From contig JAQBGU010000191.1 of the NCBI GenBank assembly GCA_032128375.1, positions 1 to 18,288 of the forward strand: a stretch of DNA of 18,288 nucleotides, in the 5' to 3' direction. The first letter of the stretch is position 1. The number at the start of each line of letters is the position of its first letter. This DNA comes from Deltaproteobacteria bacterium. Its GTDB lineage: Bacteria; Myxococcota_A; UBA9160; SMWR01. This document shows positions 3,001 to 9,000 of this stretch, piece after piece. The position numbers were made by a program.

Positions 3001-6000
3001 TTCTGGTGGCTCTGGCGTCGGGGGCGGTTCATTTTGCGCCGGGGCACAGCGAGTTCTCGACTGGACTTTGCTCTGATGCGTCGGATCTCGATTGTCGGTT
3101 ACCCAGCGGCATTCGAGGGTGTCGCGTTTCAGGTTGGCCTGCTCGCGTTTCAGCGGATCATGAGCGTCTACGGCACGGCTGCGATCGCGGCGTACAACGT
3201 CGGCGCGCAAATCCTGTCCTTGTCGTTCCTGCCCGGTATTGGTTTTGCGACAGCCGCCGGGACGTTGGTTGGGCAGTACCTGGGCAGCGGTTCACCCGCT
3301 GCAGCTGAACGCTCTGGTTGGCGCGCGACGGTTGGGGCGATTGTCAGCATGTCGGCGATGGGCGGCGTGGTGCTGCTGTTTCGCGAACCGCTCGCTCGCT
3401 CGTTTACTGACGACCCCGAGGTGATTCGGCTGACGATTGCATTCGTCTGGATCGTCACGCTGGTGCAGCCGATGATGGCGGTGGAGTTTGCGATCGGCGG
3501 TGCACTGCGCGGCGCCGGCGACACGTTGTTCCCGCTGGTCGTGATTTTCGTGGGTCTGTTCGTGTGTCGGCTGATGCCGGCGACGGCGATGGTGACGTGG
3601 TGGGATGTAACAGTCGAAATGGTCTGGTGTGCGCTGATCGCGGATTGGACCGTCAAGGCGGGGATGTTGGCGGTGAGATATCGGAAAGGGCGGTGGAAGG
3701 AAATGGAGGTCTAGACCCCGATTGGACGAGTTGGTTGACCGCTAGGACTTCTGGGCGGATCCGGGGTCTTGACCTGGGTGGAGCGTGGCGGGGCGAGGGC
3801 GTGGCCTACTCCGTTGGCCCAGTCTCGCCCTCGAAACCCGGCAGATGAGGTCCACTATGTCCCGGGTTTACGGGAGCATGTTGCCGGCGCGAGTCGAAAC
3901 GAACCTTGAAGTCAGATTGAAGGTCAGGTAGAAGGTCGCGTATGGCAACGGAACTCACCATAGGCGAGCTCGCCAACGCGGCGGGCGTGCCCACCTCGAC
4001 TGTTCGCTACTACGAGCGGGCCGGAATTCTCGCGCCGAGCGGGCGGAGTGCGGGGAACTACCGCGTCTATTCCGAGGCCGAACTCGAACGACTGCGGTTC
4101 ATCCGCGCAGCACAGGCCACTGGTTTCACGCTGGACGACATCAAGGCGCTTCTTCGGCCTGCAGCCTGCGGCAAGGTGCAGGGTCTTATCGAGGAACGCC
4201 TCGGCCAGGTTGCCGAGCGGATGTCCGAGCTGAGGCGCGTGCAGCGTGTTCTAAAGGGCGCTCTCGCCGAATGCCTCGAACACGAGGAGAGCGGGCGCTG
4301 CCGGGTCATCGAGACTCTAAGTGCCGCGGCCGGCCGTCGAACCTCCTAGACCCTATGGAGTGACCGGCTCCATTCGCAAAACTCGTGATCAAGAAGAAAC
4401 GAGTACGGGCCCGTAGGGCCCTTTGATCGCGGGTTGCCGCCGAGGCGGTAGAGCCCTGTCCTCGAGGCCTCTCCAGCCCAGCGACTGAGCCCGTAACTGC
4501 CGGCAACCGCTCGGCTTTGCGGATTCTTCCAGAAAGCCCTTTACCTTGCACCCAGGTTCAAGCCGTAAAGTCTAGCAGTGGTGGGGATTCGCGCGCGCCA
4601 CGAAGAGAGGAATGGAGTTGATGAACAACGAACCCGAACCGAGCGGGCGATGGGCGACAGGTGGGGCGATTGCAGCCGCCGTGGTCGCGTCATCGTGCTG
4701 CATGCTTCCCCTCGTTTTTGGCGCCGCCGGAATTTCAACCGTTGCGCTAGCCGGCGCGTTTGAGTCCGCACGGCCCTACATGCTCGGCGTCACCATTGTC
4801 CTTCTCGGTCTGGGCTTCTACTACAACTACTTTCGAAAGGCTGCGTGCGAGCCTGGCGACGCGTGTAAGACCCCGCGCCCGGGCCTTCGACGCATGAATC
4901 GGACGATGCTCTGGCTCGCCACGGTGGCGGTCGTCGCGCTCGCGTTCTTTCCCTCCTACGCGTTCGTGTTCGCGGGTAGTGAAACCCCGGCGGTTTCCGG
5001 CGTTGAATCCATCGACTCCAAGCAGGTGGTTCTCGAAGTCAGCGGTATGACGTGCGAAGCCTGCACGGTGAGCGTGCAAAACGAGCTCGCCGCAGTCCCT
5101 GGGGTTCTTCGCTCCGAAGTCGACTTTCGAGCCGGGAAGGCGGTCGTCTTGTTTCAAGCTGACTCGGCTCCGAGCGCGAGCGATTTGCTGTCTGCGGTCA
5201 GCCGCGCTGGATACTCGGCAGTTGTCGCCTCTTCCGCTCGGGGAGCTGAGGGATGAGCGATTGCTGTGCGAACGACCTGACGGACGAGCGGTCATTTGAC
5301 CTGGCCGTCATCGGTGGCGGCTCGGCAGCGTTCGCCGCGACGCTCCGCGCGACTGAACTCGGAGCCACCGTGCTTCTCGTAAACGAGGGCACGATTGGTG
5401 GCACCTGCGTGAACATCGGCTGTGTTCCCTCGAAGACGCTCATCCGAGCTGCCGAGAACTTCCACTGGAATCAGCTTTCTCGGTTTCGTGGGGTCAAACC
5501 GAGTCCTGGAAGCATCGACTTTCGGTTGCTGATGGAGGAGAAGAACGCACTCGTTGAGAGCCTTCGGACAGCCAAGTATGCAGACGTTCTCTCACGCCTC
5601 TCTGGTGTTCGCTTTCTAGAGGGCAAGGCGAAGCTCACCGGACGGAACGAATTGGAGGTGTCGGGGGAGCGCTTCGAGGCCGGGAAGATGGTCATTGCCA
5701 CCGGCACGCGACCCGTTTTTCCGGCCATCCCTGGACTCGCCGAGGCGGCTGTCTGGGACAGCACGCAGGCGCTCGATGCGCCGTTTCTTCCGGAGCGACT
5801 CATCGTGCTCGGGGGGAGTTATATCGCGCTCGAGCTCGGTCAGATGTTTTCTCGCCTGGGAAGCGAGGTCACGATTCTGCAGCGCAGTGCACATGTGCTC
5901 TCAGGAGAAGACCGCGACGTCGCAGAGGGTGTGACGCGGTTTCTCCGCGAAGAGGGAATCGAGATTCTTACCGGACAGAAGCTGCAGTCGGTCGAACGGC

Positions 6001-9000
6001 TGGGCGACGGTTTCGTAGTGGATGCAGCGGGAAACGCCGAGGTTGTCGCCCACAGCGCTGATGCCGTGGTATCAGCTCTTGGACGTCGTGCGAACACCGA
6101 AGCGCTCGAACTCGATGCCGGTGGCGTAGAACTCGACGCTCGCGGCTTCGTTCGCGTAGGCGACGACCTCGAGACGACTCAGGCGGGTATCTACGCCGCG
6201 GGCGACGTCCTGGGTGAGCCTGCCTTCGTCTACGCCGCAGCCTATGAGGGCTCACTTGCCGCCGAGAACGCACTCTTGGGAGAGGCTAAGAGGCGCGACT
6301 ACACAGCGATTCCGTGGGTGGTGTTCACGGACCCGCAGGTGTCCGGAGTGGGCCTCAGCGAGCGCCAGGCCGCCGAGTCCGGAATCGAGGTGGACGTCTC
6401 GGTGCTCCCCCTTGAACACGTTCCGCGGGCCGTCGCGGCGCGTGACACGCGAGGATTCGTAAAGCTGCTCCGTAAGAGCGGAACGGACCATCTGGTTGGT
6501 GCTCGGATTGTGGCTCCGGAAGGCTCAGAGCAGATAATGGAAGCGAGCTTGATGATTCGGTTCGGACTTCCTGTTTCCGAAGTCGCCAAGCACTTCCACC
6601 CCTATCTAACGCAAGGCGAAGCAATGAAGCTCGCCATGCTCTCCTTTGACACGGACGTGGAGTCTCTCTCGTGTTGCGCCGGCTAATCCGCTCCGTCGCC
6701 GTCGTGCTGGTGCTGTCGCTCGGCGCGAACTCACACTCTGCGGATGCGTCCGATGCCCTTCAGACCTGGGTCTTTAGCGTCGAAGGCATGACGTGAGGCG
6801 GATGCGTCAAGTCGGTCCGTGAGGCCGCTCTGAGTGTTGAGGGCGTCACAGAAGCAGATGTGAGCTTGCGCGAGAAGACGGCGAGGGTCACGGCGCGAGA
6901 GGGAACGACGTGGGATGCGGTCAAGAGAGCTATCGAGTCGGCCGGATACCGCGCGGAGCTAGCGGATGAATGAACGAAACCTGCTTGGAATCGGAATTAC
7001 TGGAACGATCGTTGCCGCGCTTTGCTGCTTCACGCCAGTTCTCGTGGTCTTGCTTGGCGCGGTCGGCCTGTCAGCGATTGTTGGGTGGCTCGACTACGTG
7101 CTGCTGCCTGCACTCGCGGCCTTCGTTGCACTGACGGTCCACGCCGTTACGCGGCGCCGGCGAGCGCTGGCGGCTTCTTCGTCAGCTGAGGTCGGGAGCG
7201 AATGACGCGGCTGCTAGACGCCGCGAAGAAGGCCTGGGCGAGCGAATACGCCGGGCTTTCGGAAGCGGAGATAGAGCAGCGCGTTCGAGGATTTGGCGCG
7301 ATGGTGATAGGCATTGCCGAAGACGGCGTGCTTTGTGTCGAGCGTTTCGCCGAACTCATGGGGCTCGAGACTGCGGTGGCAAGCAAGGTCTTTGCCGGGC
7401 TCTTCGCAGCTGGAATGCAGAAAGACGAGGCCGGAAACATTGTCGGCGCAGCCCTGACTGCGCGCGAAACGCCGCACAAGATTCGCGTGGCCGGTAAAGA
7501 ACTCTACGCCTGGTGCTCACTCGACGCGCTGTTCATCCCCGGGCTTCTCGGCGAAACGGCTGACATCGAATCGACGTGCCCGAGTAGCGGCGATGCGATT
7601 CGGCTAACCGTCTCGCCTGAGGCCGTGGGAAGAGCCGAGCCGTCCTCGACCTGGCTCTCTGTGTTTCTCCCGGGCGGCTCTTCGAGACAGCTAGGACCGG
7701 CGAGCCCGACGTGAAGCCAGATGCACTTTTTCCGCGCCCGGGAGGCGGCGGAGGAGTGGGTGGTGGGGCGAGCGGCAGTCGTAGCACTCAGCCTCGATGA
7801 GGCCTTCGAACTCGCCCAGGTGCATTGGGTGAATCGCGCCAAGCGGCTGCCTACACCACGATAGGTACTCCGCGCCGTTCCCGGAGCGGAGCCGGTCCGT
7901 TCCGGGCGCCTGAAGCCCTGAGGTCCACGGTGATCACACAAATGATCACCTGAAAACCGGCCATTGGGGCAGAAGTCGTCCGGGACATGGCGTGCAGTCG
8001 ATGCGGTTGGCCCAACTTCCGCAGTTGAGAGTTCGTTTTCCTGCTTTTCCAGTCACTTAGCTGGAAAAGTTGGCACTACATTATTTTGTCCAGATGTGTG
8101 GGGACTCGAAGGCGCTCGGGCAGTCGCAAACCCAGTCGATCGAGCAGCATTGCCTGAGCCTCATCGGGACGGACGACGCAGCGGATGCGAAGCGCGCGAT
8201 GCGGCTCACCGGCCAACGGGAGCACGACGTCGGTGCTCTGGATGCGGCCGATCTCCTTCAGGATCGTGCGTGGACTGTTGCCCGACCCCGCCCGCCGCTG
8301 CCATTGCTCGAGCGTCTTCCACAGCACGTACGGATCGGGGTCTCGACCTCGGTGGAGCGTGGCGGGGCGTGGCGGGGCGTACTCCGAGGACTTCTGGCCG
8401 GATCGGGGTCTTGACCTCGGTGGAGCGTGGTGGATCGGGGCGGATCGCGCACGATTCAGTATGGGACGTCTCCCTTGATCGTGATTCGGTTCATTTCGCG
8501 ACGGTGGCCCTGGTAGTCATTGAGCGCGTAGTGCTGGACGCAGCGGTTGTCCCAGATGGCTAGTGAACCGGCTCGCCAACGGAAGCGCGTCGTGAATTGC
8601 GGAGAAGTTGCGTGCGCTGATATGAAGTCCATCAGCGGTTGGCTTTCTTGGATTCGCATGTTCTCGAAGCGCTCGACGTGGGGGACATCCATGTAGAGCG
8701 CACGCCGACCCGTTTCGGGGTGGGTGCGAACGACGGGATGAATGAAGCGGGCCTGCTCCTTGGCTTCGTCCTGTTTCTTGCCCATCGGGTGGTCGACCTT
8801 TGCGTAGAGGCCATCAGAACTGTGTACCTTGGCGGCCGTGAACACCGCGTTCAGGTTTCCGAGCATCGCTTGCATTCCGGTCGATAGTGCGTCGTACGCG
8901 GCCGTCATGCTGGCAAACAGAGTATCTCCACCCGCCGTCGGAACCTCCAGCGCGTACAGAATCGTCGCCATCGAAGGCTTCTCCTGGTAGGACATGTCGG

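Follow-up and report, generated by a model that had tools for sequence, protein, structure and literature searches.

An 18,288-nucleotide stretch of DNA (hereafter, the window) from a marine-sediment bacterium very probably carries a functional broad-spectrum operon for mercury resistance that is under MerR control and encodes two selenoproteins, MerP and MerB. On the sequence evidence, the in-frame TGA codons of both genes are almost certainly selenocysteine (Sec) codons. An earlier note on this DNA had proposed a mercury operon with two selenoproteins, and this proposal is supported by the agreement between conserved TGA columns, Sec machinery, a hairpin and a fold model.

Gene reading combined with Pfam and NCBIfam profiles gives the order merR-merTP-merA-merP-merF-merB at positions 3942-7864 of the forward (+) strand, with profile matches confirming each gene of the composition previously claimed. 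The operon opens with merR (3942-4349, stop TAG), which encodes a 135-residue MerR-family metal-sensing regulator (Pfam MerR_1, 4.2e-21; MerR-DNA-bind, 4.7e-14) that scores 107.7 bits on NCBIfam MerR TIGR02051, below the cut-off of 150.85. A merTP-like fusion follows (4612-5256, stop TGA), joining a MerT membrane domain (Pfam, 2.7e-12) to a C-terminal HMA domain (1.7e-11) whose GMTCEAC motif is all-cysteine, and scoring 114 bits on NF033556 MerTP_fusion, below its cut-off of 180. The mercuric reductase core encoded by merA (5253-6686) reaches 519 bits on TIGR02053, above the cut-off of 454.45, and is the only protein in the whole genome to exceed it; it is without an N-terminal HMA domain, begins MSDCC and ends SCCAG. 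Downstream lie merP (6671-6973, with its own stop TGA at 6971-6973), merF (6966-7205, stop TGA), a 79-residue small membrane Hg(II) transporter (Pfam Transport_MerF, 4.8e-24; 101.5 bits on NF033565, above the cut-off of 50), and merB (7202-7864, stop TAG); merF overlaps merP at ATGAATGA and merB at ATGA. The operon is bracketed by a 45-nt direct repeat (family D2, + strand) identified by repeat search, with one upstream copy at 3757-3801 and two downstream copies at 8331-8375 and 8399-8443, and these three copies, all at the mer locus, are the only ones in the 6.2-Mb genome.

Translation under table 11 reproduced the reported splitting of both genes. For merP it gives a 41-residue product (6671-6796, ending VEGMT) and a later fragment; read through, the gene spans 6671-6970 and encodes a 100-residue HMA protein with predicted Sec42 in GMT-U-GGC. 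Its in-frame TGA (6794-6796) thus takes the place of the leading Cys in the CxxC metal site, the first Hg ligand, and lies inside a Pfam HMA match covering model positions 1-61 of 62 (1.1e-14). An N-terminal hydrophobic leader, recognized by eye, suggests that MerP is secreted. For merB, table 11 yields a 170-residue product (7202-7714, ending GPASPT) and a fragment at 7721-7864, and reading through the TGA at 7712-7714 gives a 220-residue organomercurial-lyase homologue (7202-7861) with predicted Sec171 in PT-U-SQMHFF. The read-through protein matches Pfam MerB over model positions 1-122 of 126 with the TGA inside the match (2.1e-30), and NCBIfam MerB NF009710 at 6.3e-41 (140 bits; cut-off 193). 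A phmmer search against PDB sequences (3f2g, 1.6e-24; 1s6l, 6.7e-24) places LYAWCSLD on the LYAWCALD of crystallised MerB, which contains Cys96 and Asp99, and the TGA on Cys159, the leading C in 'sfCC', in agreement with the earlier claim that the TGA replaces this catalytic cysteine while the Cys96 and Asp99 equivalents are kept. The resulting equivalences are Cys105 to Cys96, Asp108 to Asp99, Cys126 to Cys117 and predicted Sec171 to Cys159. Consistent with this assignment, an AlphaFold2 model of the protein (pLDDT 93.0, pTM 0.89) retrieved 11 Foldseek matches at E<=0.001, all of them MerB or MerB2, and superposes on 3f2g with TM scores of 0.82/0.87.

The same TGA recurs in relatives of both genes. 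Among 400 other genomes of the phylum, four have a MerB relative; three of these belong to the window's own order and contain a single TGA each, and the fourth contains none, replicating the earlier count. We kept 80 related merB loci from contigs representing one genome per species and found TGA in the Cys159 column of 13 other species, at identities as low as about 43%, TGC or TGT in the remaining 67, and TAA or TAG in none. In the 14 Sec forms, window included, the frame stays open for 43-55 further codons after the TGA, and these codons are, by a pN/pS of 0.40 in frame versus 1.45 and 1.09 when the frame is shifted, under purifying selection. A TGA held in one column across such divergence, with an open and conserved frame behind it, is far beyond chance, and the predicted Sec-MerB family is much larger than the earlier note saw. 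Public protein clusters carry the same signature: 112 of the best 120 MerB-relative clusters end ...[ST]PT or SPL, immediately before the Cys159 column, and six are full-length, the two displayed in our alignment (P0114 and P0120) reading C-[NS]-QMHFF. For merP, the search of 192 other genomes of the order was likewise replicated: the four closest relatives, at 77, 61, 57 and 42% identity, each contain a single TGA, which falls in the column of the window's merP TGA and within the motif EGMT-U-G[GS]C. In three of these four the gene immediately follows merA. The column is occupied by TGC or TGT in the 15 weaker matches.

Folding and covariation analysis identified a SECIS-like hairpin just 3' of the merB TGA (7724-7758, + strand), with a conserved core at 7728-7755, an apical loop CGGGA at 7739-7743 and a bulged G7747. 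Across the Sec forms, 87.2% of cells are paired compared to 43-60% in slid controls, the covariation score was reached by 0 of 500 shuffles, pair 25-35 occurs as UA (7), GC (4), UG (2) and GU (1), and RNAalifold recovers the same stem with a consensus of 11 pairs. The stem keeps on average 12.2 of its 14 pairs in Sec forms (-15.4 kcal/mol) and 8.2 of 14 in 15 Cys forms (-9.1 kcal/mol); the signal comes from coding sequence of 14 related sequences, so that both the pairing and the Sec-Cys contrast could stem in part from ancestry, amino-acid constraints or G+C content. Folding of the merP region at 6813-6852 (+ strand) offers two candidate SECIS hairpins. The shorter stem (6813-6827, loop CGUGA) has 96% of cells paired and is invariant, and therefore yields no covariation evidence; the longer stem-loop (6816-6852) has 80% paired and one covarying pair and is broken in some relatives. 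The minimum free energy of the region is -23.1 kcal/mol, compared to -8.0 after the terminal TGA of merP.

The genome, a metagenome-assembled genome (MAG) estimated as 91% complete with 2.9% contamination, encodes selA, selB, selD, the last with a single in-frame TGA of its own, and a tRNA-Sec with anticodon TCA (C163:7753-7851). This machinery, together with the conserved TGA columns (13 for MerB, 4 for MerP), the merB hairpin, the in-frame constraint, contigs from other samples and the use of TGA as a stop, underlies our Sec reading of both codons. That the sequence derives from a metagenome bin could suggest that the TGAs arose through faulty assembly or sequencing, or that TGA is read as an ordinary amino acid in this lineage, but we regard this as scarcely credible. 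Contigs from other samples preserve the merP TGA in four runs (X2-X5) and the merB TGA in two (X2, where a single 3650-nt piece spans 6600-7900, and X3), and the X2 and X3 contigs differ from the window elsewhere and at neither TGA; the codon is, moreover, common to independent genomes. Among RNA runs, none contains this stretch. TGA also terminates three of the six operon genes (merTP, merP and merF), and so does not act as a sense codon in general, and no internal stops occur in 14 MerA-like matches, selA or selB. It is only slightly easier to suppose that the TGAs terminate translation, leaving MerB and MerP as truncated pseudogene products or MerB as two polypeptides of 170 residues and, from the ATG at 7721, 47 residues. 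Gene callers and public databases do record the 170-residue form, and this ATG lies three codons past the TGA, yet Cys forms with no interruption conserve the corresponding Met of QMHFF just as well, so that it is not a start signal. Termination is also at odds with a column that holds TGA and no other stop in 13 species, with the constraint on the downstream frame, with the conserved hairpin and with a complete Sec machinery, and would deprive MerB of its Cys159 ligand as well as the final helix and strand of the fold.

If MerB is a selenoprotein, its closest described counterpart is SaoL, the 'selenocysteine-assisted organometallic lyase' (NCBIfam NF040728; Haft and Gwadz, bioRxiv 10.1101/2022.07.06.499078). 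SaoL similarly has a MerB fold with Sec aligned structurally on Cys159 and the Cys96 and Asp99 equivalents kept, but it carries a C-U dipeptide rather than T-U-S and belongs to a nine-gene SAO locus of anaerobes instead of accompanying MerR, MerA, MerP, MerF and MerTP; its authors stated that a mercury-resistance selenoprotein was unknown at the time of writing. The window protein scores 27 bits on the SaoL model (3.3e-6; cut-off 140), as opposed to 140 and 130.6 bits on two true MerB equivalog models, bearing out the earlier distinction between them. Our literature search found no MerB-like selenoprotein in print besides SaoL, and nothing describing Sec at Cys159 for an authentic MerB clade within mer operons with MerA. 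Canonical MerB (EC 4.99.1.2; plasmid R831b; PDB 1S6L, 3F0O, 3F0P, 3F2F, 3F2G) shares with the window protein PF03243 over the whole domain, the predicted fold, the Cys96/Asp99/Cys117 equivalents and a MerA operon partner; the window protein differs in having a TGA (Sec) codon at position 159 and Ser at 160, and is about 26-30% identical in structural alignment.

By contrast, Sec-MerP is of an already known kind. HMA selenoproteins modelled in NCBIfam as NF041115 ('UxxU metal-binding (seleno)protein') and NF045683 ('MerT/CopZ fusion-like heavy metal transport selenoprotein'), as well as a UxxC cation-transporting ATPase, have Sec at the GMTCxxC metal ligand in mercury-type contexts (tables of PMC13188914). 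A 'Mercuric transport protein MerP' row (two sequences) stands in Table 2 of the 2008 GOS selenoproteome (PMC2398784). Window MerP is UxxC rather than UxxU and scores 48.7 bits (cut-off 95) and 33 bits (cut-off 375) on the two selenoprotein models. Like Tn21/Tn501-type MerP (TIGR02052; 46.7 bits against a cut-off of 92.55), it is a small, probably secreted HMA protein of a mer operon with a GMTxxxC metal loop, but its first ligand is predicted Sec and its gene follows merA instead of lying between merT and merA.

A real selenoprotein need not be an organomercurial lyase in vivo, and it is conceivable, if unlikely, that Sec-MerB acts on another organometal or metalloid, or binds and hands over Hg(II) through its selenol, as argued for SaoL. 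Its MerB scores fall below the curated cut-offs (193 and 200), its gene sits in an environmental clade of 28 of the 81 rows in our tree (SH-aLRT 100), apart from 53 canonical plasmid and transposon MerB rows, and seven of the 13 Sec-merB loci have no mer neighbour in the available DNA, although in four of these seven the contig is short or the gene lies at its end. Haft and Gwadz argue (10.1101/2022.07.06.499078) that Sec at a metal site may alter the substrate profile, and the substrate of this divergent clade could differ from that of plasmid MerB. Against a non-lyase role stand the retained active-site equivalents, with Sec on Cys159, the whole predicted MerB fold (TM 0.82-0.87) and the absence of any other MerB-family gene from the genome. 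Mer genes adjoin Sec-merB in the other six loci, one of them an 801-kb contig on which the six-gene operon recurs, and in both the window and locus L008, whose sister operon is similar to the window in DNA sequence from 3882 to 7832, merB closes an operon that also encodes MerR, MerA and Hg transporters, with overlapping start and stop codons.

From the gene anatomy, homology, TGA-column conservation, hairpin, Sec machinery and predicted fold, all shown by the present analysis, we infer how such a lyase-containing operon may work. SelB and Sec-tRNA(Sec) would decode the UGAs at 6794 and 7712, each aided by a hairpin just 3' in the coding sequence, and the UGA stops of merTP, merP and merF, which are without such a hairpin, would terminate translation. 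Exported Sec-MerP would bind Hg(II) with Sec42 and Cys45 (Se-Hg-S); the metal would then probably move to the paired cysteines of MerTP and MerF and on to the C-terminal Cys-Cys of MerA for reduction to Hg(0). Sec-MerB, with the MerB fold and active site and Sec171 in place of Cys159, would use the Sec171 selenolate and Cys105 to bind the mercury in organomercurials such as methylmercury; Asp108 would protonate the leaving carbon, and Se and S would keep the Hg(II) product until its hand-over to MerA. Selenium surpasses sulfur in nucleophilicity and in the strength of its bond to mercury, and its pKa is lower, properties that would promote both capture and cleavage where, as in marine sediment, concentrations are at trace level. 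A kinetic advantage is nonetheless not self-evident, since the product could be released more slowly if selenium bound mercury very tightly.

If our interpretation is correct, Sec takes the place of a key cysteine in both the mercury-binding protein and the methylmercury-splitting enzyme of a single operon. Members of the predicted Sec-MerB family are shortened in databases at this very codon, and surveys of mercury genes would discard them.

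The mer operon of the window comprises, just as the earlier note had it, six same-strand genes within 3942-7864 under the standard bacterial code, and every one of them is named by both Pfam and NCBIfam: merR (3942-4349, +), a merT::HMA fusion referred to as merTP (4612-5256, +), merA (5253-6686, +), the small HMA gene merP (6671-6973, +), merF (6966-7205, +) and merB (7202-7864, +). That note further held that merP and merB are each split at one in-frame TGA, at 6794-6796 and 7712-7714, respectively, and that both codons are read as selenocysteine (Sec); the split is as described, and we find the observation to be real and correctly interpreted. 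MerA surpasses its NCBIfam equivalog cut-off (519 vs 454 bits) and is the sole MerA above cut-off in its genome, and MerF likewise exceeds its NCBIfam cut-off (101.5 vs 50 bits). Curated NCBIfam equivalog cut-offs are missed by MerB, MerP, MerTP and MerR despite good family matches, and the mer set of the window is, as judged from its sequences, divergent. MerA, which begins MSDCC (window 5253-5270), lacks the N-terminal HMA domain (NmerA). An extreme N-terminal Cys-Cys is present in two of three relatives examined (MSDCC, VSDSCC; just one Cys in the third), the loci including L008:4044-, in the sister mer operon, and L013:3878-, in another relative, and this Cys-Cys might stand in for NmerA as Hg(II) acceptor.

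When read through its TGA, merB encodes a protein of 220 residues with the motif PT-U-SQMHFF, the only MerB-family gene product of its genome, which matches the Pfam MerB family at 105.7 bits (gathering score 27) and misses both NCBIfam MerB equivalog cut-offs (NF009710, 140 vs 193 bits; NF033555, 130.6 vs 200 bits). Residues 57-206 align by phmmer with the solved MerB structures 3f2g (1.6e-24) and 1s6l (6.7e-24). These alignments bear out two earlier claims about the active site, namely that the equivalents of Cys96 and Asp99 are kept, with LYAWCSLD lying on LYAWCALD of 1s6l and 3f2g, and that the TGA occupies the place of catalytic Cys159, where the codon is aligned to the first of the two cysteines in 'sfCC'. 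The corresponding residues C105 and D108 are invariant across 34 aligned relatives. An AlphaFold2 model built from a 34-sequence alignment (pLDDT 93.0, pTM 0.89) predicts the MerB three-dimensional fold for the window protein: its best Foldseek match is 3f2g_B (E 4.2e-17, TM 0.82/0.87, rmsd 2.6), and all 11 PDB matches at E<=0.001 are MerB or MerB2. The Cys that the MerB family has at position 159 is replaced by a TGA codon and, since the chalcogen ligand would be kept there in a different chemical form if the TGA is decoded as Sec, we class Sec-MerB as a variant of MerB and not as a plain member.

An in-frame TGA could also mark a decayed or split gene, a sequencing error or a genome that has recoded TGA throughout, and we rejected each of these explanations for both codons. 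The window genome (6.2 Mb in 249 contigs, 91% complete) encodes the full Sec machinery, comprising selA, selB (detected via its winged-helix domain), selD, which has one in-frame TGA of its own, and one tRNA-Sec with anticodon TCA. Genome-wide recoding would make TGA an ordinary sense codon, which it is not in this genome: merTP, merP and merF all terminate at TGA, and there are no internal stops in selA, selB or any of the 14 MerA-like matches of the genome. With regard to sequencing error, contigs assembled from other samples in two sequencing runs (X2 and X3) match the window at both TGAs while differing from it at about a dozen other places, and contigs from two more (X4 and X5), which cover merP alone, keep the merP TGA; X2-X4 come from the same study as a possible source and are only partly independent of the window, but neither TGA is an assembly slip. 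As to a pseudogene or a split gene, the reading frame stays open for 43-55 codons past the TGA in the window and in all 13 Sec relatives of MerB, and the residues that follow, [SGNT]-[QGT]-MHFF-[RS]-[AS]-RE..A..W..., are common to Sec and Cys forms. Across codons +1 to +41, the 91 pairs of 14 Sec forms give a pN of 0.24 and a pS of 0.61 (ratio 0.40), as compared to pN/pS values of 1.45 and 1.09 in the shifted frames downstream of the merB TGA, which shows that the region past this TGA is translated and that purifying selection acts on it. Together, we infer from these data that Sec is inserted at the merB and merP UGAs.

A stem-loop lies shortly downstream of the merB UGA. The 14 Sec forms align gap-free in this region, and RNAalifold finds in them a stem of 11 pairs, in which columns 17-27 pair to 33-44 and one base is bulged, closed by the loop CG[G/U]GA, which places a SECIS-like hairpin at 7728-7755 (+) of the window, extensible to 7724-7758. 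In a 14-pair version of the stem 87.2% of cells pair, as opposed to 43-60% when the 3' partners are slid, and the covariation score of the stem was reached by none of 500 shuffles. Pair 25-35 is UA in seven sequences, GC in four, UG in two and GU in one, and its covariation couples two amino-acid changes (FR-A-RE-A vs FR-S-RE-D). The same columns form 12.2 of 14 pairs in the 14 Sec forms but 8.2 of 14 in 15 Cys forms, with folding energies of -15.4 and -9.1 kcal/mol, respectively, a contrast drawn between related sequences of differing G+C whose p-values are overstated for that reason. The UGA is separated from the stem by 13 nt and from the loop by 24 nt, and in both this spacing and its loop G the hairpin agrees with descriptions of bacterial SECIS elements.

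The merP read-through product is a protein of 100 residues that begins in a hydrophobic leader and carries GMT-U-GGC as its loop, and which passes Pfam HMA (55 vs 24.8 bits) and misses the TIGR02052 MerP model (46.7 vs 92.55 bits). That its TGA column is conserved, as the first reading had maintained, is upheld by a search of 192 other genomes of the order, in which the four best matches (77, 61, 57 and 42% identity) have one TGA each at this position, in the context EGMT-U-GGC three times and EGMT-U-GSC once. Cys codons occupy the column in all 15 weaker matches, giving 5 Sec and 15 Cys forms when the window is included. Three of the four Sec-MerP relatives directly follow merA, and the closest sits on an 801-kb contig, within an operon of the same six genes. 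Downstream of the merP Sec TGA, 60 nt fold at -23.1 kcal/mol, compared to -8.0 kcal/mol after its terminal TGA. The structural signal is nonetheless weaker than for merB, with two hairpins that compete and neither of which shows clear covariation in five sequences: a 5-bp stem at 6813-6827 (+), closed by CGUGA, 96% paired and without variation, and a longer stem at 6816-6852 (+), 80% paired and with one covarying pair. SelD of the same genome (G000:C140:3308-4234, L003) is also a selenoprotein, with the motif GG-U-ARK, and a strong hairpin begins 22 nt after its UGA. We sought a shared SECIS loop motif at this UGA and found the loop to be GUU rather than CGUGA, which leaves no loop signature specific to the lineage that could be relied on.

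In a collection of 5.8 billion proteins, 223 relatives of the window MerB were detected at E<=1e-10, and we describe the best 120. Among these best 120 of 223, 112 end in ...[ST]PT or SPL, one residue before the Cys159 column, and they span from 99% to about 50% identity to the window MerB. Six of the 120 are full length, with P0114 and P0120 showing A-C-[NS]-QMHFF at the Cys159 site, one continues out of frame and the remaining one is cut short in the middle of the domain. A DNA scan of one genome per species yielded 85 relatives, and in the 80 loci kept the Cys159 column is TGA in 13 and TGC or TGT in 67, which with the window amounts to 14 Sec and 67 Cys rows. Within the phylum, we reproduced the count reported previously: 4 of 400 other genomes have a MerB relative, of which three, all belonging to the order of the window, contain a single TGA; the fourth contains no TGA. 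A further MerB-family fragment with one in-frame TGA lies at a contig end (L117, G138:C409:2841-3035) in a genome of the same order that also has a Sec-MerP relative.

To place these sequences relative to one another we used a quick maximum-likelihood tree of 81 rows in which the Sec column was masked as X. One clade (SH-aLRT 95) unites twelve Sec rows, the window among them, and two Chloroflexota Sec rows (by record title a Dehalococcoidia MAG and a SAR202 MAG) form a tight pair whose placement among the Cys forms is unsettled in the tree. All Sec rows fall inside a 28-row environmental clade (support 100), which also includes Cys forms from Chloroflexota, Rhodothermales, Actinomycetota and two Asgard archaeal MAGs and stands apart from 53 rows of familiar plasmid and transposon MerB. 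Going by record labels, Sec-MerB occurs in at least two phyla, that of the window's lineage and, as SAR202/Dehalococcoidia, the Chloroflexota. Sec may have a single origin, with one change on this tree (support 60). The two Chloroflexota proteins (L019:6013-6564 and L020:5956-6501) read GPQ-C-AT-U-TGMHFF and hence have a CxxU arrangement, with a Cys three residues before Sec; the main clade, with GPASPT-U, has no such Cys.

In the window merB is linked to both merA and merR, and mer genes adjoin 6 of the 13 related Sec-merB loci: five of these have merR and the sixth a less strong match of MerR type, while merA is present at two, merF at three and merTP or HMA also at three. The other seven loci show no mer neighbour in the DNA covered: a Pfam search of 79 nearby ORFs gave only an ArsR-type regulator, not MerR, directly upstream of the gene at one Chloroflexota locus, and at four of these seven loci the contig is short or ends at the gene. 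The window and the sister operon (L008) are similar in DNA only from 3882 to 7832, beyond which the flanks are unrelated; this similarity resumes at 4476 upstream of merTP, and it stops just inside three copies of a 45-nt direct repeat, one upstream (3757-3801) and two downstream (8331-8375 and 8399-8443) of the operon. These are all the copies in the genome, the 26-nt core being found nowhere else in 6.2 Mb. This arrangement suggests that the mer operon is a movable cassette; no recombinase or transposase was found beside the repeats, where two ORFs, 8076-8327 (-) and 7964-8560 (+), match no Pfam family. The approximately 600 bases between merB and a TauD-family gene (8456-9334, -), at 7865-8455, hold only such Pfam-less ORFs along with two of the repeat copies. 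Further along the window, at 16371-16490, there is a 24-nt tandem array with a CGATCGGTTGATGACTCTCTACCT-like unit and, by spacing, five units. A consensus scan of 3600-8500 identified no sigma-70 promoter, and inverted repeats upstream of merR and of merTP amount to weak dyads only. A look for RNA data sets that cover window 6600-7900 came up with none. Upstream of merTP the stretch 4540-4575 is conserved and has CTTTAC...GTAAAG around TTGCAC, and this may be a MerR-controlled promoter/operator.

The nearest known system is SaoL, a MerB-like selenoprotein whose Sec has been placed on MerB Cys159 and which has a C-U motif, belongs to the SAO locus of anaerobes and shares <15% identity with MerB (Haft & Gwadz, bioRxiv 10.1101/2022.07.06.499078). 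The window MerB differs from it in scoring 27.1 bits against a cut-off of 140 for the SaoL model (NF040728), in having T-U-S in place of the C-U dipeptide and in residing among mer genes rather than in a SAO locus. Within open-access full text (subscription journals being outside the scope), SaoL was the only MerB-like selenoprotein found. Reviews of prokaryotic selenoproteins from 2022 and 2026 list, in passages of their tables, SaoL, HgcA, HgcB, a MerT-like transporter, a UxxC P-type ATPase and a UxxU metal-binding protein, and authentic MerB is absent from these passages. For MerP the situation differs. NCBIfam has two HMA selenoprotein models, of which the UxxU (seleno)protein model NF041115 is missed by the window MerP (48.7 vs 95 bits; UxxC, not UxxU), and a 2008 GOS study counts 'Mercuric transport protein MerP', with two sequences, among 51 previously described selenoprotein families (PMC2398784). 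Sec-MerP, with the GOS 'MerP' matched by family name, is one more case of the already known HMA selenoproteins; what appears from sequence to be new here is Sec at Cys159 of authentic MerB in mer operons.

The mechanism that we propose draws on selenol chemistry and on what is established for the mer systems of Tn21/Tn501 and R831b. We read Sec-MerB as the classical enzyme in classical operons, its Cys159 nucleophile encoded as selenocysteine, in a large family that annotation truncates. It has a predicted organomercurial lyase activity and, by analogy, would hand its Hg to MerA; a second route would lead from MerP to MerTP or MerF and on to MerA. Selenium would presumably bring a kinetic benefit. 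A more ambitious proposal, which we regard as less likely than not, is that Sec-MerB of the GPASPT-U type could be a major uncounted methylmercury demethylase of marine sediments and the deep ocean, its selenolate conferring a lower Km or a higher kcat at pM-nM concentrations than any Cys MerB. Such an enzyme would escape surveys, since its gene calls break off at the UGA and MerB hits lacking Cys159 are then dropped in curation. In MerB, Cys96, Asp99 and Cys159 are treated as strictly conserved (PMC8261052), and at least one recent marine-sediment survey hand-screened Prodigal-predicted MerB for Cys96, Cys159 and Asp99 (PMC12484752), a screen that would reject a clade whose gene calls end one residue short of position 159. 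This clade accounts for 112 of the best 120 of 223 database relatives, and merB abundance and methylmercury-demethylation potential may therefore be underestimated in such habitats. Annotation pipelines, which shorten members of the Sec-MerB family, would need a read-through reference for it.

In their description of SaoL, its authors state that no mercury-resistance selenoprotein was known and regard selenium dependence as an odd design for a resistance system (Haft & Gwadz, bioRxiv 2022). The operon in the window, with a MerA above its equivalog cut-off, would be a counter-example. Since the catalytic nucleophile occurs naturally in both a Sec and a Cys version, in an enzyme with solved structures, the old question of what advantage Sec has over Cys can here be tested directly for Hg-C cleavage. 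If the reading of Sec-MerB is true, then together with Sec-MerP it would mean that classical resistance to mercury can be selenium-dependent, and the cycles of Se and Hg would be joined at the level of an enzyme.
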